Shown here: positions 323-11,942 of the stretch, one piece after another | Numbering within the stretch: position 1 is the first letter of the stretch | Layout: every line of letters begins with the position of its first letter | DNA from: a virus | UHGV virus genome: UHGV-1569641 | Length of the DNA: 11,942 nt | Strand: one strand, 5' to 3' | Position numbers and translations under genes: made by a program | The notes under the pieces: generated by a model | Databases searched by the model: none | Told to the model about the DNA's origin: nothing | What the model saw: only the letters and a program-made list of their open reading frames with translations

Positions 323-1015
323 TTAATTGTGTCGCTTAAGGGTTTGTGACTGGCTGATTAAGACCTTTCCAAAGACCATAAACCGGTGTTCATTTTCGCT
401 GGTAATTCCCCATTCACGGTAAATCTGGTTATCAGAAATCACCAGTAGTTTGTCAGGTATCATTTGCAGTCGTTTGACATAAATTTTATCATCAAAACCA
501 AATACATAGATACCATCTCCATCAAACTGATTGATACTGACATCAACGAAGATGAGATCTCCTGGCTCAATGGTTGGACACATACTGTCCCCACGAACGT
601 TGATAACTTTAATGTGATTGGCTGGCCGTCCGCCAAACATCGATACAGCATTATCAGTTCTGTATTCAATGGCATGAATCACATCAATGACATCACCGCC
701 CTGGATAAGGCCATTTCCCGCACTGGCACTGACATCCAGCATTTCAATACGGAATACATCCTTCACCTGCGCAACATCCTCACTAATACTGTTTTTACAT
801 ACAGTATTACTTTTGACGTCTGAGGTAAAGAGATCAGCAATATCAACACCTAAGCTCCTGGCAATATTACTCAGGGCTTGTTCAGTGAATTGTTTCTGCT
901 TACCTGTTTCCAGGCGTGAGATATTCGCCGCATCCACTCCTATTGCTTCAGCGAGATCGGCGATTTTCATGTTCTTCGCCTGGCGAAGTTGTCTGACTCG
1001 GTTTCCTATGTTCAT
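323..1015 (-). CDS. cI: CI-type phage repressor (N-terminal XRE-family HTH, C-terminal S24 LexA-like autopeptidase domain)
   Basis: 230-aa ORF. N-terminus has an HTH (QAKNMKIADLAEAIGVDAANISRLETGK). C-terminus has a GDSMCPTIEPGDLIFVD Ser motif and a downstream YVKRL Lys, consistent with a Ser-Lys dyad, plus an Ala-Gly candidate cleavage site (SASAGNG). Divergent from cro. No Shine-Dalgarno upstream of the ATG. Confidence 0.9.
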   Translation of the reverse strand: MNIGNRVRQLRQAKNMKIADLAEAIGVDAANISRLETGKQKQFTEQALSNIARSLGVDIADLFTSDVKSNTVCKNSISEDVAQVKDVFRIEMLDVSASAGNGLIQGGDVIDVIHAIEYRTDNAVSMFGGRPANHIKVINVRGDSMCPTIEPGDLIFVDVSINQFDGDGIYVFGFDDKIYVKRLQMIPDKLLVISDNQIYREWGITSENEHRFMVFGKVLISQSQTLKRHN

Positions 1016-2258: not shown

Positions 2259-2278
2259 AGGTCGGTCATGAGCACTAA
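2057..2278 (+). CDS. Small DUF4222-like phage protein (true start probably TTG at 2099)
   Basis: Protein-like sequence [52 protein letters not shown] resembles small lambdoid DUF4222-type proteins (recollection). AAGGAG at 2085-2090 precedes the in-frame TTG at 2099. The GTG at 2057 is the track start. Confidence 0.5.
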
Positions 2279-3209
2279 ATTAACCGGCTATGTATGGGAT
2301 GGTTGCGCTGCGTCAGGCATGAAATTATCCAGCGTGGCAATTATGGCCCGCCTGGCTGATTTCAGTAATGACGAAGGTGTGTGCTGGCCATCAATTGAAA
2401 CTATTGCCCGTCAGATTGGCGCGGGGATGAGTACCGTCAGAACGGCTATCGCACGGCTGGAAGCAGAAGGCTGGTTAACGCGTAAGGCGCGTCGCCAGGG
2501 TAACCGCAATGCGTCGAATGTTTATCAGCTTAACGTTGCGAAGCTTCAGGCAGCGGCATTTTCTCAACTGTCAGATTCTGACCCGTCAAAATCTGACGCA
2601 TCAAAATCTGACACGTCAAAATTTGATGCGTCGAAATCTGGCAAAAAAGCGGGTTTTCACCCGTCAGAATCTGGCGGGGATCCGTCAGTAAAATCAAAAC
2701 ATGATCCGTCAGATAAAAAACCTTCTCGTCCGGACGCTTCGCAACCGGACACGCAGACGGCTGAACAGGATTTTTTAACTCGCCATCCTGATGCGGTTGT
2801 ATTCAGCCCTAAAAAGCGCCAGTGGGGAACGCAGGATGATTTGACCTGCGCACAGTGGCTCTGGAAAAAAATCATTGCCCTGTACGAGCAGGCCGCCGAA
2901 TGTGACGGCGAGGTGGTTCGTCCCAAAGAACCGAACTGGACAGCATGGGCAAACGAAATTCGCCTGATGTGTGTGCAGGATGGTCGTACTCACAAACAAA
3001 TCTGCGAGATGTACAGCCGCGTCAGCCGCGATCCGTTCTGGTGCCGTAACGTGCTCAGCCCGTCGAAGTTGCGGGAAAAATGGGATGAGCTTTCCCTGCG
3101 CTTATCGCCGTCCGTCAGCACGCACACAGAAAAACGTGAAGACCCGTACTTCAAAGCCAGTTACGACAACGTGGACTACAGCCAGATCCCGGCAGGATTC
3201 AGGGGGTGA
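2268..3209 (+). CDS. Replication initiation protein, lambda O-like (N-terminal wHTH, iteron-encoded linker, C-terminal domain of unclear family)
   Basis: 313-aa ORF. N-terminal HTH-like DNA-binding region (SIETIARQIGAGMSTVRTAIARLEAEGWL). The middle of the gene holds tandem iterons encoding a low-complexity SKSD-rich linker, the same architecture as lambda O and ori. Confidence 0.75.
   Translation: MSTKLTGYVWDGCAASGMKLSSVAIMARLADFSNDEGVCWPSIETIARQIGAGMSTVRTAIARLEAEGWLTRKARRQGNRNASNVYQLNVAKLQAAAFSQLSDSDPSKSDASKSDTSKFDASKSGKKAGFHPSESGGDPSVKSKHDPSDKKPSRPDASQPDTQTAEQDFLTRHPDAVVFSPKKRQWGTQDDLTCAQWLWKKIIALYEQAAECDGEVVRPKEPNWTAWANEIRLMCVQDGRTHKQICEMYSRVSRDPFWCRNVLSPSKLREKWDELSLRLSPSVSTHTEKREDPYFKASYDNVDYSQIPAGFRG
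2568..2720. repeat. Iteron array (putative phage origin of replication) inside the O-like gene
   Basis: Seen directly: 15-bp tandem units CCGTCAAAATCTGAC (2583-2597), GCATCAAAATCTGAC (2598-2612), ACGTCAAAATTTGAT (2613-2627), GCGTCGAAATCTGGC (2628-2642), preceded by TCAGATTCTGAC (2571-2582). Further CCGTCAGA-type copies at 2661-2675, 2682-2695 and around 2705-2720. Units contain an internal dyad (TCAGA-N-TCTGA); an A-rich stretch follows. Confidence 0.7.
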
Positions 3210-3211
3210 TC

Positions 3212-3700
3212 ATGAGTCTTTTGAATGACGTTCAGAAATTCATTGAAGCCCATCCGGGCTGTACTTCCGGAGACATTGCGGATGCTTTTGCAGGTTACTC
3301 ACGGCAGCGCGTTCTGCAGTCAGCAAGCAAGTTACGTCAGAGTGGGCGTGTGGCTCACCGTTGTGAAGGAGATACACGCAGACATTTCCCGCGCCTGACT
3401 GAGAGAGCGCAGGAGCCGGAACCACAATCTGTTCGTGAAACCAGACCTGTGCGCAATTTCTATGTCGGCACTAACGACCCCCGGGTGATTTTGTGCCTGA
3501 CCCGCCAGGCGGAAGAACTGGAGTCCAGGGGCTTATACCGTCGTGCTGCAACGGTGTGGATGGCGGCATTCCGTGAAAGCCACTCCCAGCCAGAACGAAA
3601 CAATTTTCTGGCGCGTCGTGAACGGTGTTTACGGAAAAGCAGTAAGCGGGCTGCATCAGGTGAAGAGTGGTACCTCTCAGGGAATTACGTGGGGGCTTAA
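3212..3700 (+). CDS. PerC-family-like transcriptional regulator (N-terminal HTH-like region plus C-terminal PerC-like motif)
   Basis: ATG at 3212 preceded by a G-rich RBS; the track start at 3206 is an upstream GTG. C-terminal ELESRGLYRRAATVWMAAF...RRERCLRK resembles the PerC/Pch motif as recalled, not searched. Confidence 0.5.
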   Translation: MSLLNDVQKFIEAHPGCTSGDIADAFAGYSRQRVLQSASKLRQSGRVAHRCEGDTRRHFPRLTERAQEPEPQSVRETRPVRNFYVGTNDPRVILCLTRQAEELESRGLYRRAATVWMAAFRESHSQPERNNFLARRERCLRKSSKRAASGEEWYLSGNYVGA

Positions 3701-4352
3701 TGAGTAATAAATATTGCCAGGCGCTGGTGGAGCTGCGGAACAAACCAGCCCATGAACTGAAGGCAGTGGGCGATCAGTGGCGCACGCCGGACAACATTTT
3801 CTGGGGAATTAACACCCTGTTTGGCCCGTTTGTTCTGGATCTGTTCACTGACGGTGATAACGCCAAATGTGCTGCGTATTACACGGCGGAAGACAACGCG
3901 CTGGCGCATGACTGGTCAGAACGCCTTGCGGAGCTTAAAGGTGCTGCCTTTGGTAATCCCCCATACAGCCGCGCCAGTCAGCATTAGGGGCAATACATCA
4001 CCGGCATGCGTTACATCATGAAGCATGCCAGTGCCATGCGTGATAAAGGCGGGCGCTATGTTTTCCTGATCAAAGCTGCCACCAGCAAGTGTGGTGGCCG
4101 GAAGATGCAGATCATATTGCTTTTATTCGCGGGCGTATTGGTTTTGAACTGCCTGCCTGGTTTATCCCGAAGGATGAGAAGCAGGTGCCGACAGGCGCTT
4201 TCTTCGCTGGTGCTATTGCTGTTTTCGACAAGACCTGGAAGGGACCGGCAATCAGCTACATCGGGCGCGATGAACTTGAGGCATGTGGTGAGGCCTTTCT
4301 GGCGCAGGTTCGCCAGCAGGCAGAAAAACTGGTCAGGGAGATGGCGGCATGA
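3700..4352 (+). pseudogene. Phage Dam-type N6-adenine DNA methyltransferase, disrupted by an in-frame amber codon and a 1-nt frameshift
   Basis: N-terminal part (from ATG 3700) carries the catalytic NPPY motif (FGNPPYS) and ends at TAG 3985-3987. The same frame resumes with MTase-like sequence (KGGRYVFLIKAATSK), then the homologous sequence continues in the -1 frame from about 4089 (WWPEDADHIAFIRGRIGF...) to the stop at 4352, which overlaps the next gene start in ATGA. Confidence 0.6.
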
Positions 4353-4675
4353 CGACGTTAACTCAATGCCAGCAGCAGGTGCTGGATATGCTGATTTCTT
4401 ATCAGAAAGAACGTGGCTTCCCGCCAACCAATCAGGAGGTGGCAACCATGCTGGGATACCGTTCAGTGAATGCAGCGGTGGAGCATCTTCGCGCACTGGA
4501 GAAAAAAGGCGTCATCACGATAAAGCGTGGCGTGGCCCGGGGCATCACGCTTCATACCGCGGTGAAGGACGACGACAGCGAGGCGGTCGGGATTATCCGC
4601 TCACTGCTTGCCGGTGAGGAAAACGCAAGGCTGCGTGCAGCCCACTGGTTACATGAGAGGGGCCTGAAAGTATGA
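4349..4675 (+). CDS. LexA N-terminal DNA-binding-domain-like protein (winged helix; no peptidase domain)
   Basis: 108-aa ORF. LTQCQQQVLDMLISYQKERGFPPTNQEVATMLGYRSVNAAVEHLRALEKKGVI resembles the LexA N-terminal DNA-binding domain (recollection). ATGA-coupled to both neighbouring genes. Confidence 0.6.
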   Translation: MTTLTQCQQQVLDMLISYQKERGFPPTNQEVATMLGYRSVNAAVEHLRALEKKGVITIKRGVARGITLHTAVKDDDSEAVGIIRSLLAGEENARLRAAHWLHERGLKV

Positions 4676-5061
4676 AGCTGATCCTGCCTTTTCCGCCCAG
4701 CGTGAACACGTACTGGCGACACCCCAACAAAGGGGCGTTTGCTGGTAAGAGCCTGATAAGCGCGGCGGGGCGAAAATTCCAGAGCGCGGCGTGCGCAGCA
4801 ATAGTTGAGCAGTTACGTCGTCTGCCGAAACCAACGTCGGCACCTGCTTCAGTGGAGATCGTGTTGTTTCCTCCGGATAACAGGATCCGCGATCTGGACA
4901 ACTATAACAAGGCGCTGTTTGACGCCCTGACCCACGCGGGGGTGTGGGAAGACGACAGTCAGGTGAAAAGAATGCTGGTGGAGTGGGGACCGGTTATCCC
5001 GGAAGGGAAGGTCGAGATCACTATCAGTAAGTACGAGAAAACGGCGGGTGCAGCTGCCTGA
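4672..5061 (+). CDS. rusA: RusA-family Holliday junction resolvase
   Basis: 129-aa ORF with RusA-like features (PPSVNTYWRH near the N-terminus, DLDNYNKALFDALT acidic motif). Typical position in the lambdoid nin region. Confidence 0.8.
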   Translation: MKLILPFPPSVNTYWRHPNKGAFAGKSLISAAGRKFQSAACAAIVEQLRRLPKPTSAPASVEIVLFPPDNRIRDLDNYNKALFDALTHAGVWEDDSQVKRMLVEWGPVIPEGKVEITISKYEKTAGAAA

Positions 5062-5891: not shown

Positions 5892-6887
5892 GTGACCGTG
5901 AGAGCACTACTGACCCCTGAAATTGCCCCGCGTATGGGGATCGTATTGTTCAGGCCAGGTTCAGAGCTGATGCCCCTGTTTATGCAGGGGCGTGTCCTGC
6001 TGGAGCCTGAGCCGGAACGTTATTCATCTTTTGCCAGTGGTGCCGTTCCGGCTGCATCACAACCGCTGGCGGATGATCCTGCCGTTCGGGCCGTGTTCCG
6101 CAATGAGGCAGTGATCCGTCGTGCTGGTGGCGTGGAATGTCTTGAAAGCTGGTTACTTCGTGAAAAAGGCTGCCAGTGGCCTCATTCCGGATGGCACAGC
6201 GAGAACATGACCACAATGCGACACGCTCCGGGTGCAATCCGTCTGTGCTGGCACTGCGATAACCAGTTGCGCGATCAGTTCACGGAACGGCTGGAATCAA
6301 TGGCAACGGATAACTGTGCCCGCTGGGTGTTGTCTGTTGTGCGTCGGGATCTCGGTTTTGATGACAGTCACGTTGTGACAATGCCGGAACTGTGCTGGTG
6401 GCTGATTCGTAATGATCTGGCGGATGCCTTACCGGAAAGTGCAGCCCGTAAGGCACTGAGATTACCGAAGCCTGTTGTGCCGTCTGTCACCCGGGAAAGT
6501 GACCTGGTGCCTTCGGTTCCTGCCACCAGCATCATCCAGGATAAAGCGAAAAAGGTGCTGGCGCTGAAAGTGGATCCGGAGTCGCCGGACTCTTTTATGT
6601 TACGCCCAAAACGTCGCCGCTGGGTTAATGAAAAGTACACGCGATGGGTTAAGACGCAGCCGTGCGCATGTTGTGGAAAACCTGCTGATGATCCCCACCA
6701 CCTGATAGGCCACGGTCAGGGTGGAATGGGGACAAAAGCGCATGACCTCTTTGTGTTGCCTTTGTGCAGAAAGCATCACGACGAGCTGCATGCGGATAAT
6801 GTGGCATTCGAAGAGAAGTATGGCTCCCAGCTGGAGCTGATATTTCGTTTTATCGATCGTGCGCTGACGATTGGTGTGCTGGCCTGA
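5892..6887 (+). CDS. DUF968-like (YdfU-like) phage protein with C-terminal Cys/His-rich putative metal-binding motif
   Basis: 331-aa ORF; start uncertain (GTG 5892 or GTG 5898 after GAGG). C-terminal [22 protein letters not shown]...[10 protein letters not shown]. Sits immediately upstream of Q, as ydfU does relative to quuQ in the Qin prophage (recollection). Confidence 0.55.
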
Positions 6888-7477: not shown

Positions 7478-8560
7478 TTAGAACTGGTAAACCAGACCTA
7501 CAGCAACGATGTCATCAGTATCAATACCAGCTGTTTTGGTAAACTTACTATCGTCAATTAAGTTGATTTTGTAATCAACAAAAGTGGACATGTTTTTATT
7601 AAAGTAGTAAGTAGCACCGACATCGACATACTTGACTAAGTCTCGGTCACCATGAACACCAAGGTCTTTACCTTTTGACTGAAGGTAAGCAACAGATGGG
7701 CGCAGACCGAAGTCAAACTGATATTGTGCTACTGCTTCAAAGTTTTGTGCTTTGTTTGCAATATGGTTATTACCAAAAACGGTCATATTCTGAGTTTCAG
7801 AATATGTGGTAGCCAGATAGATATTGTTCGCATCATATTTCAGGCCTGCAGCCCATACTTCCGCATTTTTGCCGGAGGCATTGAATTTGCTCTTACCATA
7901 GGCGACCTGACCGTCAGTGCGATCTGATTTAGCATAGGTTGCACCCACGCCGAATCCTTCATACTCATAAGTAGTGGAGAAACCGAAACCATCACCATTG
8001 GCTTCAGTTACGTCAGTGCGGTCATTTTTACCCTGATACTGAGCAGCAAAGTTCAGGCCATCGACCAGACCAAAGAAGTCGTTGTTACGATAAGTTGCAA
8101 CACCAGTAGTGCGACCAGTCATGAACACATCTGTTTGGGTCCAGGTATCACCACCGAATTCTGGCAGGACGTCAGTCCACGCACCGATGTCGTATGCTAC
8201 ACCGTAGTTACGGCCGTAATCGATTGAGCCGTAATCACCAAATTTCAGGCCTGCAAATGCAAGACGGGTTTTGTCTTTGGAAGAACCTTGAGATTCAGCG
8301 CGGTTGCCTTTGAATTCATATTCCCACTGACCGAAACCAGTCAGTTGATCGTTGATTTGGGTTTCACCTTTGAAGCCAAGACGGGCATAAGTAGTATCAC
8401 CATCATCTGCATCATTAGAGGAGAAGTAGTGCTTAGCATTAACTTTCCCGTACAGATCCAGCTTGTTACTGTCTTTATTATAAATTTCAGCTGCCTGAGC
8501 AGACATCGCCATCAGTACTGATGCAGCTACAGCAGAAATTGCCACTGTTAATTTTTTCAT
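7478..8560 (-). CDS. nmpC: Outer-membrane general porin, NmpC / Lc / OmpD-type (prophage-encoded, lysogenic-conversion porin)
   Basis: 360-aa ORF with signal peptide ([29 protein letters not shown]), porin motifs ([19 protein letters not shown]) and C-terminal VYQF. Opposite orientation to the flanking phage genes; appears intact. Confidence 0.9.
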
Positions 8561-9133: not shown

Positions 9134-9349
9134 ATGAAATCCATGGATAAGTTAACAACGGGTGTCGCCTATGGCACCTCAGCAGGTAGTGCCGGGTACT
9201 GGTTTTTACAGCTGCTAGATAAAGTCACGCCCTCACAGTGGGCGGCAATTGGAGTGCTGGGTAGCCTGGTATTTGGCCTGCTGACGTACCTGACAAACCT
9301 TTATTTCAAGATTAAAGAAGATAAGCGTAAGGCTGCGAGAGGTGAATAA
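9134..9349 (+). CDS. S: Class II holin, S21-type pinholin, with dual-start motif
   Basis: 71 aa, two transmembrane segments, N-terminal MKSMDK (Met1/Met4 dual start typical of S21), C-terminal charged tail [13 protein letters not shown]. Very similar to phage 21 S as recalled. Confidence 0.9.
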
Positions 9350-9846
9350 TGTCGCCATCATTACGCAAGGCTGTAGCAGCTGCTATTGGTGGTGGGGCTG
9401 TTGCCATAGCGTCTGTGCTCATCACTGGTCCGAGTGGTGACGATGGTCTGGAAGGTGTCAGCTACATACCATATAAAGATATTGTTGGTGTATGGACTGT
9501 ATGTCACGGGCATACAGGAAAAGACATCATGCTCGGTAAAACGTATACCAAAGCAGAATGCAAAGCACTCTTGAATAAAGACCTTGCCACTGTCGCCAGA
9601 CAAATTAACCCGTACATCGAAGTCGATATACCGGAAACAACGCGCGGCGCTCTTTACTCATTCGTTTACAACGTGGGTGCTGGCAATTTCAGAACATCGA
9701 CGCTTCTTCGCAAAATAAACCAGGGCGATATCAAAGGCGCATGTGATCAGCTACGGCGCTGGACATACGCTGGCGGTAATCAATGGAAAGGACTGATGAC
9801 TCGCCGTGAGATTGAGCGTGAAGTCTGTTTGTGGGGGAAACAATGA
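9349..9846 (+). CDS. R: SAR endolysin (phage 21 R-type lysozyme, GH24 / T4-lysozyme fold)
   Basis: 165 aa. N-terminal Gly/Ala-rich weakly hydrophobic signal-anchor-release segment ([20 protein letters not shown]), then lysozyme core ([12 protein letters not shown]...VWTVCHG). Start overlaps the holin stop (TAATG). Confidence 0.9.
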
Positions 9847-10301
9847 GCAGAGTAACCGCGATTATCTCCGCTCTGGTTATCTGCATCATCGTCTGCCTGT
9901 CATGGGCTGTTAATCATTACCGTGATAACGCCATTACCTACAAAGCCCAGCGCGACAAAAATGTCAGAGAACTGGAGAAGGCGAACGCCACCATCGCTGA
10001 CATGCGGAAGCGTCAACGTGATGTAGCAGAACTCGATGCAAGATACACAAAGGAGCTTGCTGATGCTAACGCGACTATCGAAAGTCTCCGTGCTGATGTT
10101 TCTGCTGGGCGTAAGCGCCTGCAAGTCGCCGCCACCTGTGCAAAGTCAACGACCGGAGCCAGCGGCATGGGCGATGGAGAAAGCCCAGGACTTACAGCAG
10201 ATGCTGAACTCAATTATTACCGTCTCCGAAGTGGAATCGACAAGATAACCGCGCAGGTTAACTACCTGCAGGAATACATCAGGACGCAATGCCTGAAATA
10301 A
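9843..10301 (+). CDS. Rz: Rz-like inner-membrane spanin (i-spanin)
   Basis: ATG at 9843 overlaps the lysozyme stop (ATGA). N-terminal TM helix ([14 protein letters not shown]) and coiled-coil periplasmic domain. Track start 9831 is an upstream alternative. Confidence 0.8.
10063..10248 (+). CDS. Rz1: Rz1-like outer-membrane lipoprotein spanin (o-spanin), embedded in Rz in the +1 frame
   Basis: ORF fully inside Rz. Lipobox LLGVSAC followed by a Pro-rich mature region ([13 protein letters not shown]). Start chosen at the internal Met ([20 protein letters not shown]) of the 10036-10248 track ORF. Confidence 0.7.
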
Positions 10302-10333
10302 TTTTTTTGCAAATCACAAAGTCCATTTAATGA

Positions 10334-10355
10334 GCCTCGCGATGCGGGGCTTTTT
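10334..10355 (+). terminator. Rho-independent terminator after the lysis cassette (first of two)
   Basis: Stem GCCTCGC / GCGGGGC (one G-U pair), 3-nt loop, followed by TTTTT. Confidence 0.5.
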
Positions 10356-10362
10356 GCAATAA

Positions 10363-10387
10363 ATGCGTACCGCAACGCATGTTTTTT
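10363..10387 (+). terminator. Rho-independent terminator after the lysis cassette (second)
   Basis: ATGCGT-accgca-ACGCAT hairpin followed by G-TTTTTT. Confidence 0.5.
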
Positions 10388-10502
10388 ACACCGAATCTGC
10401 CCCTTTGGAATGGGCCTTTGAGGATACCAGTTAGTGCTGGCGAGCCTCGGTGGGCTGGTTTCCTGTGCGGCAAAGGTTCATTTCAAAGAGTAGGTACACG
10501 CT

Positions 10503-11000
10503 ATGAAATCATTAACCCTCTTCAATTAACCAATTCGTATCGGTGAAGATGGCATGATCTGCCTCACTGATATGTGGAAAGCCAGTGGTAAAAGTGAATC
10601 TGAATCGCCTTACCACTACCTGCGAAACAAGCAGACCAAAGAGTTCTTAGCCGAGCTGGAGAAAAACCACGAATCTGTGGTTTTTACTGAGCGCGGTGTA
10701 CACGGTGGAACATATGGCGGGAAGTTTGTTGCTTACGATTATGCGGCTTGGTTAAACCCCGGGTTCAAGTACGCGGCCTATAAAGTCCTCGATGACTACT
10801 TCACCGGAGAACTTCAGCATCGCAACAGCTTAAGTGCGCAGCTCAACATGAAATGTCATGAGTTTGACCAGAAGAAAGACATGGCGAGCTTCTGCGGACA
10901 AGGGCTGGCAGCATGGCGCTATACGAAGCCAGTGTTGGTCGCTGAGATTAACTCCCTGGCTAACCAGCTGCAGATTACGATCCCCGGGCTTCCGGGATGA
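10503..11000 (+). pseudogene. KilA-N domain protein interrupted by an in-frame TAA near the N-terminus (a truncated product from ATG 10554 is possible)
   Basis: ATG at 10503, eight codons (MKSLTLFN), TAA at 10527-10529, then the same frame continues PIRIGEDGMICLTDMWKASGK...EFLAELEK, a KilA-N-type N-terminus. The first downstream ATG is 10554, which is the track ORF 10554-11000. Confidence 0.5.
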
Positions 11001-11266
11001 GTGATCATGTTATTGAATGCGCCTCCAGAGCGGGGCGCGACTTCTCAGAGTTCATGAAAGGCGAGAAGGGCATGATGGAAGCATTGGCCTCGGTGGACGA
11101 GTTTGGCGAGCAGCTGCGCCTCAACGGCTGTGTCAATCATCACTTTGTTAGCTACATGATGCGGAACTCGATCATGCAGGCATTCATGGACATGGCAAAA
11201 GCCGAGAGGAAAGAAGAGCGCCGGCGTAAGCGAGCGGAAGCAAAAGCAAAAGCAAAAGTGAAGTAG
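10997..11266 (+). CDS. Hypothetical small protein with Lys/Glu/Ala-rich C-terminal tail
   Basis: 89-aa ORF starting in an ATGA overlap with the KilA-N stop. C-terminal AKAERKEERRRKRAEAKAKAKVK. No family recognised. Confidence 0.45.
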   Translation: MSDHVIECASRAGRDFSEFMKGEKGMMEALASVDEFGEQLRLNGCVNHHFVSYMMRNSIMQAFMDMAKAERKEERRRKRAEAKAKAKVK

Positions 11267-11303
11267 CCATTACAAAGCCCATTTACGGGTGGGCTTGATA
11301 ATG
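11256..11303 (+). repeat. Hairpin-containing repeat, copy 1 (AAGTGAAG-TAG-CCATTAC-AAAGCCCA-loop-TGGGCTT-GATAATG)
   Basis: Seen directly: stem AAGCCCA (11275-11281) / TGGGCTT (11290-11296), followed by GATAATG; begins at the stop codon of the 89-aa ORF. Paired with copy 2 at 11552-11606. Confidence 0.5.
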
Positions 11304-11490
11304 AAACCGGAATTTATTCTGGGCCACCAGTTAACGGCAGTACCACGAAACAACCCAAGCCAGTAAGTGGGGAAATAACACCGGCAGCCACTGAAAGATG
11401 AACCTCCTGCCTTATGGCAAAAAAGATTCTTTGTGGTGGCGGACTGATGGAAAGACATCCTAATTTCAGCCAAACATTGAAGGAGTTGTT

Positions 11491-11562
11491 ATGTCAGCAG
11501 AAGGTTTCAATAACCCATCAAAATTCCGGGATGAGTGGGATAGCAGCGTAAAGAGTAAGTGA
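11491..11562 (+). CDS. Possible 23-aa small ORF (MSAEGFNNPSKFRDEWDSSVKSK)
   Basis: ATG preceded by a strong SD (GAAGGAG, 5-nt spacer). Too short to judge; could be a gene remnant. Confidence 0.2.
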   Translation: MSAEGFNNPSKFRDEWDSSVKSK

Positions 11563-11803: not shown

Positions 11804-11942
11804 GGTGATGCTGCCAACTTACTGATTTAGTGTATGATGGTGTTTTTGAGGTGCTCCAGTGGCTTCTGTTTCTATCAGCTGTCCCTCCTGTTCAGCTACT
11901 GACGGGGTGGTGCGTAACGGCAAAAGCACCGCCGGACATCAG
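11804..11942 (+). mobile_element. IS1 insertion sequence, left end (inverted repeat plus start of insA); continues beyond the window
   Basis: GGTGATGCTGCCAACTTACTGATTTAGTGTATGATGGTGTTTTTGAGGTGCTCCAGTGGCTTCTGTTTCTATCAGCTGTCCC... matches the IS1 terminal inverted repeat and 5' region as recalled. Confidence 0.85.
11859..11942 (+). CDS. insA: IS1 InsA (transposition regulator / N-terminal part of the InsAB' transposase), 5' partial, GTG start
   Basis: Translation from GTG 11859 gives (M)[27 protein letters not shown], the InsA N-terminus with its zinc-finger Cys residues. Runs off the window edge. Confidence 0.8.

Follow-up and report, generated by a model that had tools for sequence, protein, structure and literature searches.

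A phage N-6-adenine-methyltransferase gene, very probably inactivated in two steps, in the early-right operon of a lambdoid prophage

How does a phage methyltransferase gene come to be broken in two places while the genes on either side of it are whole, and does the damage record selection against methylation in the host or the ordinary decay of a resident prophage? The locus that raises this question lies in the window, by which we mean the whole 11,942-nucleotide stretch of the virus genome UHGV-1569641 analysed here. On its plus strand, a methyltransferase open reading frame opens with the ATG at 3700 and stops at an in-frame TAG at 3985–3987 (ORF list and translation), leaving an N-terminal fragment (3700–3987) of 95 codons plus the premature stop, with the catalytic NPPY motif, contained within FGNPPYS, at codons 86–89 (nucleotides 3955–3966). 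The homology continues beyond the TAG for 33 further codons in the unchanged frame until about 4086 (the middle segment, plus strand, codons 97–129, EGQYITGMRYIMKHASAMRDKGGRYVFLIKAATS, 3988–4086), and it is completed by a C-terminal segment in the −1 frame, comprising codons 131–217 and the TGA (4087–4352, plus strand), which shows up as an 87-amino acid ORF at 4089–4352 with a GTG start at 4089. A tblastn search of the window with an intact homologue, a 217-amino acid protein of Escherichia coli EC96 (WP_000066917.1), returns exactly two pieces: residues 1–130 in frame 1 (3700–4089), with a single stop at codon 96, and residues 130–217 in frame 3 (4086–4349). The original prediction for this locus, made from the nucleotide sequence of the window, had described an NPPY-bearing ORF ended by TAG at 3985–3987, a resumption in the same frame, and a move to the −1 frame from about 4089, and had proposed a protein-to-DNA alignment as a check. 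The coordinates hold in the ORF list and translation, the translation bears out the course of the frames, and the tblastn search with the EC96 protein, like the DNA alignment described below, gives the one nonsense and one frameshift lesion that had been expected. A single unbroken frame over the whole methyltransferase domain is not found, given the stop at codon 96 and the frame change after codon 129, and the window copy is, judged from its reading frames, a pseudogene of the phage N-6-adenine-methyltransferase family and no functional member of it.

The family assignment draws on both the intact counterpart and the fragments. The intact homologue matches the Pfam family PF05869, "DNA N-6-adenine-methyltransferase (Dam)", with an E-value of 1e-45 and 156 bits, and the NCBIfam model TIGR01712, "phage N-6-adenine-methyltransferase", with 255.6 bits (the profile cut-offs are 28.1 bits for PF05869 and 97 bits for TIGR01712, the latter being an equivalog model). 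Both window fragments match the corresponding parts of the two profiles: the N-terminal fragment aligns to positions 3–73 of the 169 in PF05869 (E=7e-25, 88 bits) and scores 121 bits against TIGR01712, and the C-terminal fragment aligns to positions 102–167 of PF05869 with 34 bits, over the cut-off, and scores 81 bits against TIGR01712, which is under the cut-off because the fragment covers only a third of that model. The (D/N)PP(Y/F/W) motif of amino-methyltransferases is present as NPPY. A search with hmmscan against all of Pfam (E≤0.01) gave no match to any other family, including that of the E. coli and T4 Dam enzymes. The prediction of a phage adenine methyltransferase is therefore upheld by the profile assignment to PF05869, and the description "Dam-type" is apt as Pfam's name for that family but not as membership of the E. 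coli/T4 Dam family. A PDB sequence search with the intact protein gave nothing meaningful (best E-value 0.75), and a literature search on PF05869 and pseudogenised phage N-6-adenine methyltransferases gave nothing specific to the present subfamily; the study of Drozdz et al., 2012 (PMC3299994) deals with another group, that of non-specific enzymes. In the RefSeq phage records NC_021857 (positions 3001–3654 of the compared locus, L015), NC_003444, and NC_019716, the methyltransferase is labelled "phosphoadenosine phosphosulfate reductase". The profile PHROG 33262 is a 495-position fusion that the methyltransferase matches only at positions 283–492, and the reductase label, carried by the methyltransferase in many RefSeq phages, is a propagated misannotation traced to this profile.

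DNA alignment with the genes of EC96 and of E. coli YJ6 reduces the damage to exactly two disabling differences from the intact EC96 gene. The older lesion is a one-nucleotide deletion at 4086–4087 (plus strand), by which AGCGAAG became AGCAAG; it shifts the frame after codon 129 and destroys the C-terminal 40% of the enzyme. The younger is a G-to-T change at 3985, by which TAG (3985–3987, plus strand) replaces the GAG of Glu96. In the intact context the lost base stands between ACCAGC and AAGTGTGG as a single G between C and A; it belongs to no homopolymer, and run slippage is therefore not the mechanism. This corrects the original placement of the deletion in an A-run. Repairing both sites in silico yields an uninterrupted ORF of 217 codons whose product matches that of EC96 in all but one residue.

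Intact copies of the same gene are common, and they are constrained. All 41 of the near-identical phage records, among them the viable temperate phages SfII, SfV, mEp460, and cdtI and many Stx2a/Stx2c phages, give an uninterrupted 217-codon match, and in an evenly spaced sample of full-length copies from E. coli genomes every one (48 of 48) is exactly 654 nt long. The intact genes of SfII, SfV, mEp460, cdtI, and the Stx2a/Stx2c phages share 97–99% nucleotide identity with the window copy and occupy the same position, from yfdN/PerC to the LexA-domain gene, with like overlaps of starts and stops; they run uninterrupted through 217 codons, whereas the window copy has an amber codon at 96 and the one-nucleotide deletion after codon 129. 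Between EC96 and SfII there are 13 synonymous and 2 nonsynonymous differences, giving an omega (dN/dS) of about 0.04, a value that points to purifying selection on the intact gene. The methyltransferase family has 587 records, from phages of enterobacteria and beyond, and the gene is kept by selection under normal circumstances, presumably acting in lytic growth or transfer. The differences that disable the window copy, measured against orthologues that are intact and constrained, recur in independent assemblies, as expected of a prophage pseudogene produced by point lesions.

The distribution of the two lesion alleles bears on whether they are real and in what order they arose. The gene might in truth be intact and the lesions a product of sequencing or assembly, since errors of this kind commonly take the form of single-base indels or substitutions, and complete E. 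coli genomes lack the TAG allele: a 61-nt probe for it has a perfect match in 0 of 1707 that carry the gene. Such an error is nevertheless extremely unlikely, because the deletion is common to two complete E. coli genomes finished independently, YJ6 and ETEC6, in which NCBI annotates the gene as frameshifted, and is present in every metagenomic or isolate contig covering the site; the deleted base, moreover, sits in no homopolymer. At least 10 contigs, from different projects and assemblers, encode the exact 95-amino acid product (the eight shown come from eight different samples in ENA, Logan, and NCBI), and TAG and deletion occur together in all 5 of the contigs that extend across both sites. 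Both lesions are real, chance and sequencing error being excluded. Separately, four short contigs with the TAG allele end at equivalents of window positions 3984–4113, in or near the middle of the pseudogene, which suggests assembly breaks arising from near-identical prophage copies in the same samples.

A 61-nt probe for the deletion finds a perfect match in 2 of about 1709 complete gene-carrying E. coli genomes, namely YJ6 and ETEC6, and both of these have GAG at codon 96. Because deletion-only alleles exist and the TAG is absent from the 1707 complete genomes, the TAG is nested in the deletion lineage, with the deletion first and the TAG later; the nonsense change thus struck a gene that was already dead. 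The locus had been predicted to carry two independent inactivating lesions, and two there are, but they are sequential, the deletion being older and shared with YJ6 and ETEC6. The pseudogenes of these strains (HXS64_RS17475 in YJ6 and FNW97_RS02675 in ETEC6) have the identical one-nucleotide deletion in the same prophage backbone, with 99.9% identity over 751 nt, and differ in lacking the TAG at codon 96, which makes them an earlier stage of the same decay. The YJ6 and ETEC6 prophage is about 99.1–99.8% identical to the window, and ETEC6 is the best match to the window among 5,426 complete E. coli genomes (87% coverage, 99.1% identity). Outside short recombination patches, the window and YJ6 differ at about 8 sites in 8.4 kb, the TAG among them, and a single substitution in 653 nt matches this background divergence of about 1 per kb, with no excess.

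Could the pieces nonetheless make an enzyme? Function might be retained through recoding, by amber read-through together with a programmed frameshift, or through conserved sub-genes whose products assemble. Two small PHROGs families seem to speak for such sub-genes, phrog_22740 matching the N-terminal part only and phrog_26052 the C-terminal part only; their existence shows that fragments of the gene were deposited earlier and is no demonstration of function. We regard a split or recoded enzyme as exceedingly improbable. Few genomes have the lesion alleles (2 of about 1709 for the deletion and 0 of 1707 for the TAG), slippery or repeat sequence is absent at the site, the window has no tRNA gene from which a phage-borne amber suppressor could come, and a two-piece assembly would be without residues 96–130, including the conserved RYVFLIK strand. 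The viable phages, furthermore, all carry a single 217-codon gene, which also answers the alternative, raised with the original prediction, that the pieces are separate conserved genes. A phase-variable or programmed-frameshift methyltransferase was likewise considered and rejected, the deleted base being a lone G in AGCGAAG with no repeat and the deletion allele occurring in 2 of about 1709 genomes. The window copy would be unable to produce a functional methyltransferase because the 95-amino acid product, which is without more than half of the methyltransferase domain, ends 6 residues past NPPY, and the middle and C-terminal parts lie in different frames.

The setting of the gene is that of an operon whose geometry has survived the damage. 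On the upstream side, yfdN, an intact gene for a PerC-family regulator (3206–3700, plus strand; identified by annotation in relatives), ends in a TAA that overlaps the dam ATG as TAATG. On the downstream side, an intact gene for a 108-amino acid protein with a LexA DNA-binding domain only (4349–4675, plus strand) begins at an ATG at 4349 that overlaps the final TGA of the methyltransferase (4350–4352) as ATGA, in agreement with the prediction of intact operon geometry. The genes from 2268 to 5061 overlap start to stop, and a promoter/terminator scan of the plus strand found no promoter-like or terminator-like site between 1900 and 5060. This places the methyltransferase inside a repressor-controlled early-right operon, where, from the gene order, it should be silent in the lysogen. 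The LexA-type protein encoded at 4349–4675, which is without an S24 peptidase domain, adjoins the methyltransferase throughout the phage group. In Salmonella phage 118970_sal3 the homologue (positions 1501–2394 of the compared locus, L014) has 297 amino acids, made up of the domain and a C-terminal extension of about 85 amino acids; there RusA comes directly after the methyltransferase, and a separate LexA-like gene is absent.

The deletion has a further consequence, from which a different role for the TAG could be argued. In the deletion-only allele, as in YJ6, translation from the dam ATG would run on to give a 305-amino acid chimera whose end is equivalent to window position 4617, and in the window the same original frame, out of register over the next gene, remains visible as an artefactual 203-amino acid ORF created by the frameshift (4006–4617, plus strand). 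The tail of the chimera holds a hydrophobic 19-mer, IILLLFAGVLVLNCLPGLS, with a mean Kyte-Doolittle value of 2.3. The TAG abolishes the chimera when translation starts at the dam ATG, and it might have been favoured for blocking an out-of-frame protein with a membrane-like segment, relieving toxicity or occlusion of the downstream start at induction; the wide spread of the TAG sub-lineage over its ten or more contigs could be counted in favour of this. The two-hit pseudogene would then record compensation, not continued decay. We think such compensation very unlikely, since one substitution in this length of sequence is at the background rate and needs no selection, the aberrant frame can still be entered at the ATG at 4006, shortly 3′ of the TAG, and lysogens are expected to keep the operon silent.

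The preferred reading, stepwise decay, fits the state of the surrounding prophage. The window takes in the part of a lambdoid prophage that serves immunity, replication, and late control. First in the gene order is a cI-like S24 repressor (326–1015, minus strand), after which come a cro-like HTH gene, a CII/YmfL-like gene, an O-like replication protein, yfdN/PerC, the methyltransferase, and the LexA-domain gene, followed by RusA, a KilA-N gene, DUF968/HNH, antiterminator Q, an ompC-like porin on the opposite strand, holin, lysozyme, and Rz. The porin, an intact OmpC/NmpC-like protein of 360 amino acids encoded between antiterminator Q and the lysis genes (7478–8560, minus strand), is a typical prophage "moron". 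Downstream of the lysis genes, an IS1 element has been inserted, of which the window includes the left end with its left inverted repeat (beginning GGTGATGCTGCCAACTTACTGATTTAGTG; 11805–11942, plus strand); the equivalent site in ETEC6 is annotated as IS1B transposase, and this IS1 end is an independent sign of prophage degradation. The sister prophage in ETEC6, at the argU/intD site, still has its full complement of head and tail genes and on that account is not deeply "cryptic"; its damage consists of an IS1 between the lysis genes and the terminase, a tail fibre truncated by IS2, and a partial gene near int. Another decayed copy is found in E. coli K-12, where yfdM of the defective prophage CPS-53/KpLE1 corresponds to the first 267 nt of the gene (for example, NZ_CP010443.1 3214877–3215143), with 97.4% identity and likewise adjoining yfdN; it has lost its 3′ 60% by deletion or rearrangement, whereas the window copy is full length with two point lesions. 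Taken together, the IS1 end, the insertion-sequence damage in ETEC6, and the K-12 remnant place the prophage lineage at an early to middle stage of decay and mark the gene as one that is known to break down in resident prophages. Of the readings offered with the original prediction, prophage gene decay is thus the best, supported by the IS1 end in the window and by the IS1 and IS2-truncated tail fibre of ETEC6.

Some other features of the window reflect differences from its relatives. At 6190–6267, in the DUF968/HNH gene, there are six clustered substitutions unique to the window when it is compared with six near-identical relatives, a pattern suggestive of a short patch of gene conversion from another prophage. 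Relative to ETEC6, the stretch 9217–11562 is mosaic, with many substitutions in the end of the holin gene, lysozyme, and Rz, and from about 10067 it carries different cargo, including a 148-amino acid KilA-N/ORF11CD3 protein (10554–11000) and an 89-amino acid ORF (10997–11266) with no Pfam match.

Compared with relatives, every other gene in the 12-kb window has its full length; the methyltransferase alone is broken, which could be read as targeted loss. Knock-outs might have been selected if the methyltransferase were harmful in the host, through ectopic methylation or disturbed Dam-dependent regulation, and two lesions in this one gene with none in its neighbours is the pattern that such a process could leave. 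Several observations make adaptive loss highly unlikely. The lesions are nested, deletion then TAG, and so count as one inactivation, not two; about 1,700 other E. coli genomes have both sites undamaged, and the length is intact in all of the sampled genome copies and phage records noted above; omega is low; and a repressed early operon would give little or no expression in lysogens. The suggestion of selection against methylation in this host, made with the original prediction, is unsupported for the same reasons, the gene being intact in nearly all other carriers at an omega of about 0.04.

M.EcoVT2Dam is described as a GATC-specific orphan methyltransferase of the Stx2 phage VT2-Sakai/933W (Radlinska and Bujnicki, 2001, as cited in PMC6602927), and orf32 of VT2-Sakai is presumably this enzyme. 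It resembles the present gene in being a small phage enzyme of PF05869 with an NPPY motif, encoded in the early-right/nin region, but it has only 31% identity to the intact homologue over 144 residues, is 175 rather than 217 amino acids long, and is encoded elsewhere in the genome, with ninB and ninE on either side. The GATC specificity of M.EcoVT2Dam cannot simply be transferred to the present subfamily.

The evidence taken as a whole leads us to conclude, with high confidence, that the locus is a two-hit pseudogene of a PF05869/TIGR01712 methyltransferase, situated in the early-right operon, and that the lambdoid prophage around it is beginning to decay. In an ancestor of this prophage lineage, one G was lost at 4086/4087, shifting the frame after codon 129. 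This first loss may have been tolerated in the lysogen because the prophage repressor shuts the operon off, and an unexpressed gene would be unselected under vertical inheritance; if the enzyme was GATC-specific like M.EcoVT2Dam, it would also have duplicated the host Dam. In the sub-lineage that includes the strain of the window, the G-to-T change at 3985 followed later, converting Glu96 to amber; with the gene already dead, this second change was probably neutral to selection.

For annotation, 3700–4352 should be treated as one pseudogene, where gene callers report a pair of short "Dam" ORFs, one of 95 and one of 87 amino acids. The first lesion is already flagged in the public annotation of the sister strains. 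The locus is a case of ordinary stepwise prophage gene decay, of little importance beyond annotation, though it makes a small textbook example. Its nested lesions give no evidence of counter-selection on methylation, and the combination of the deletion and the TAG nested within it offers a handy lineage marker for the prophage and its host clone.
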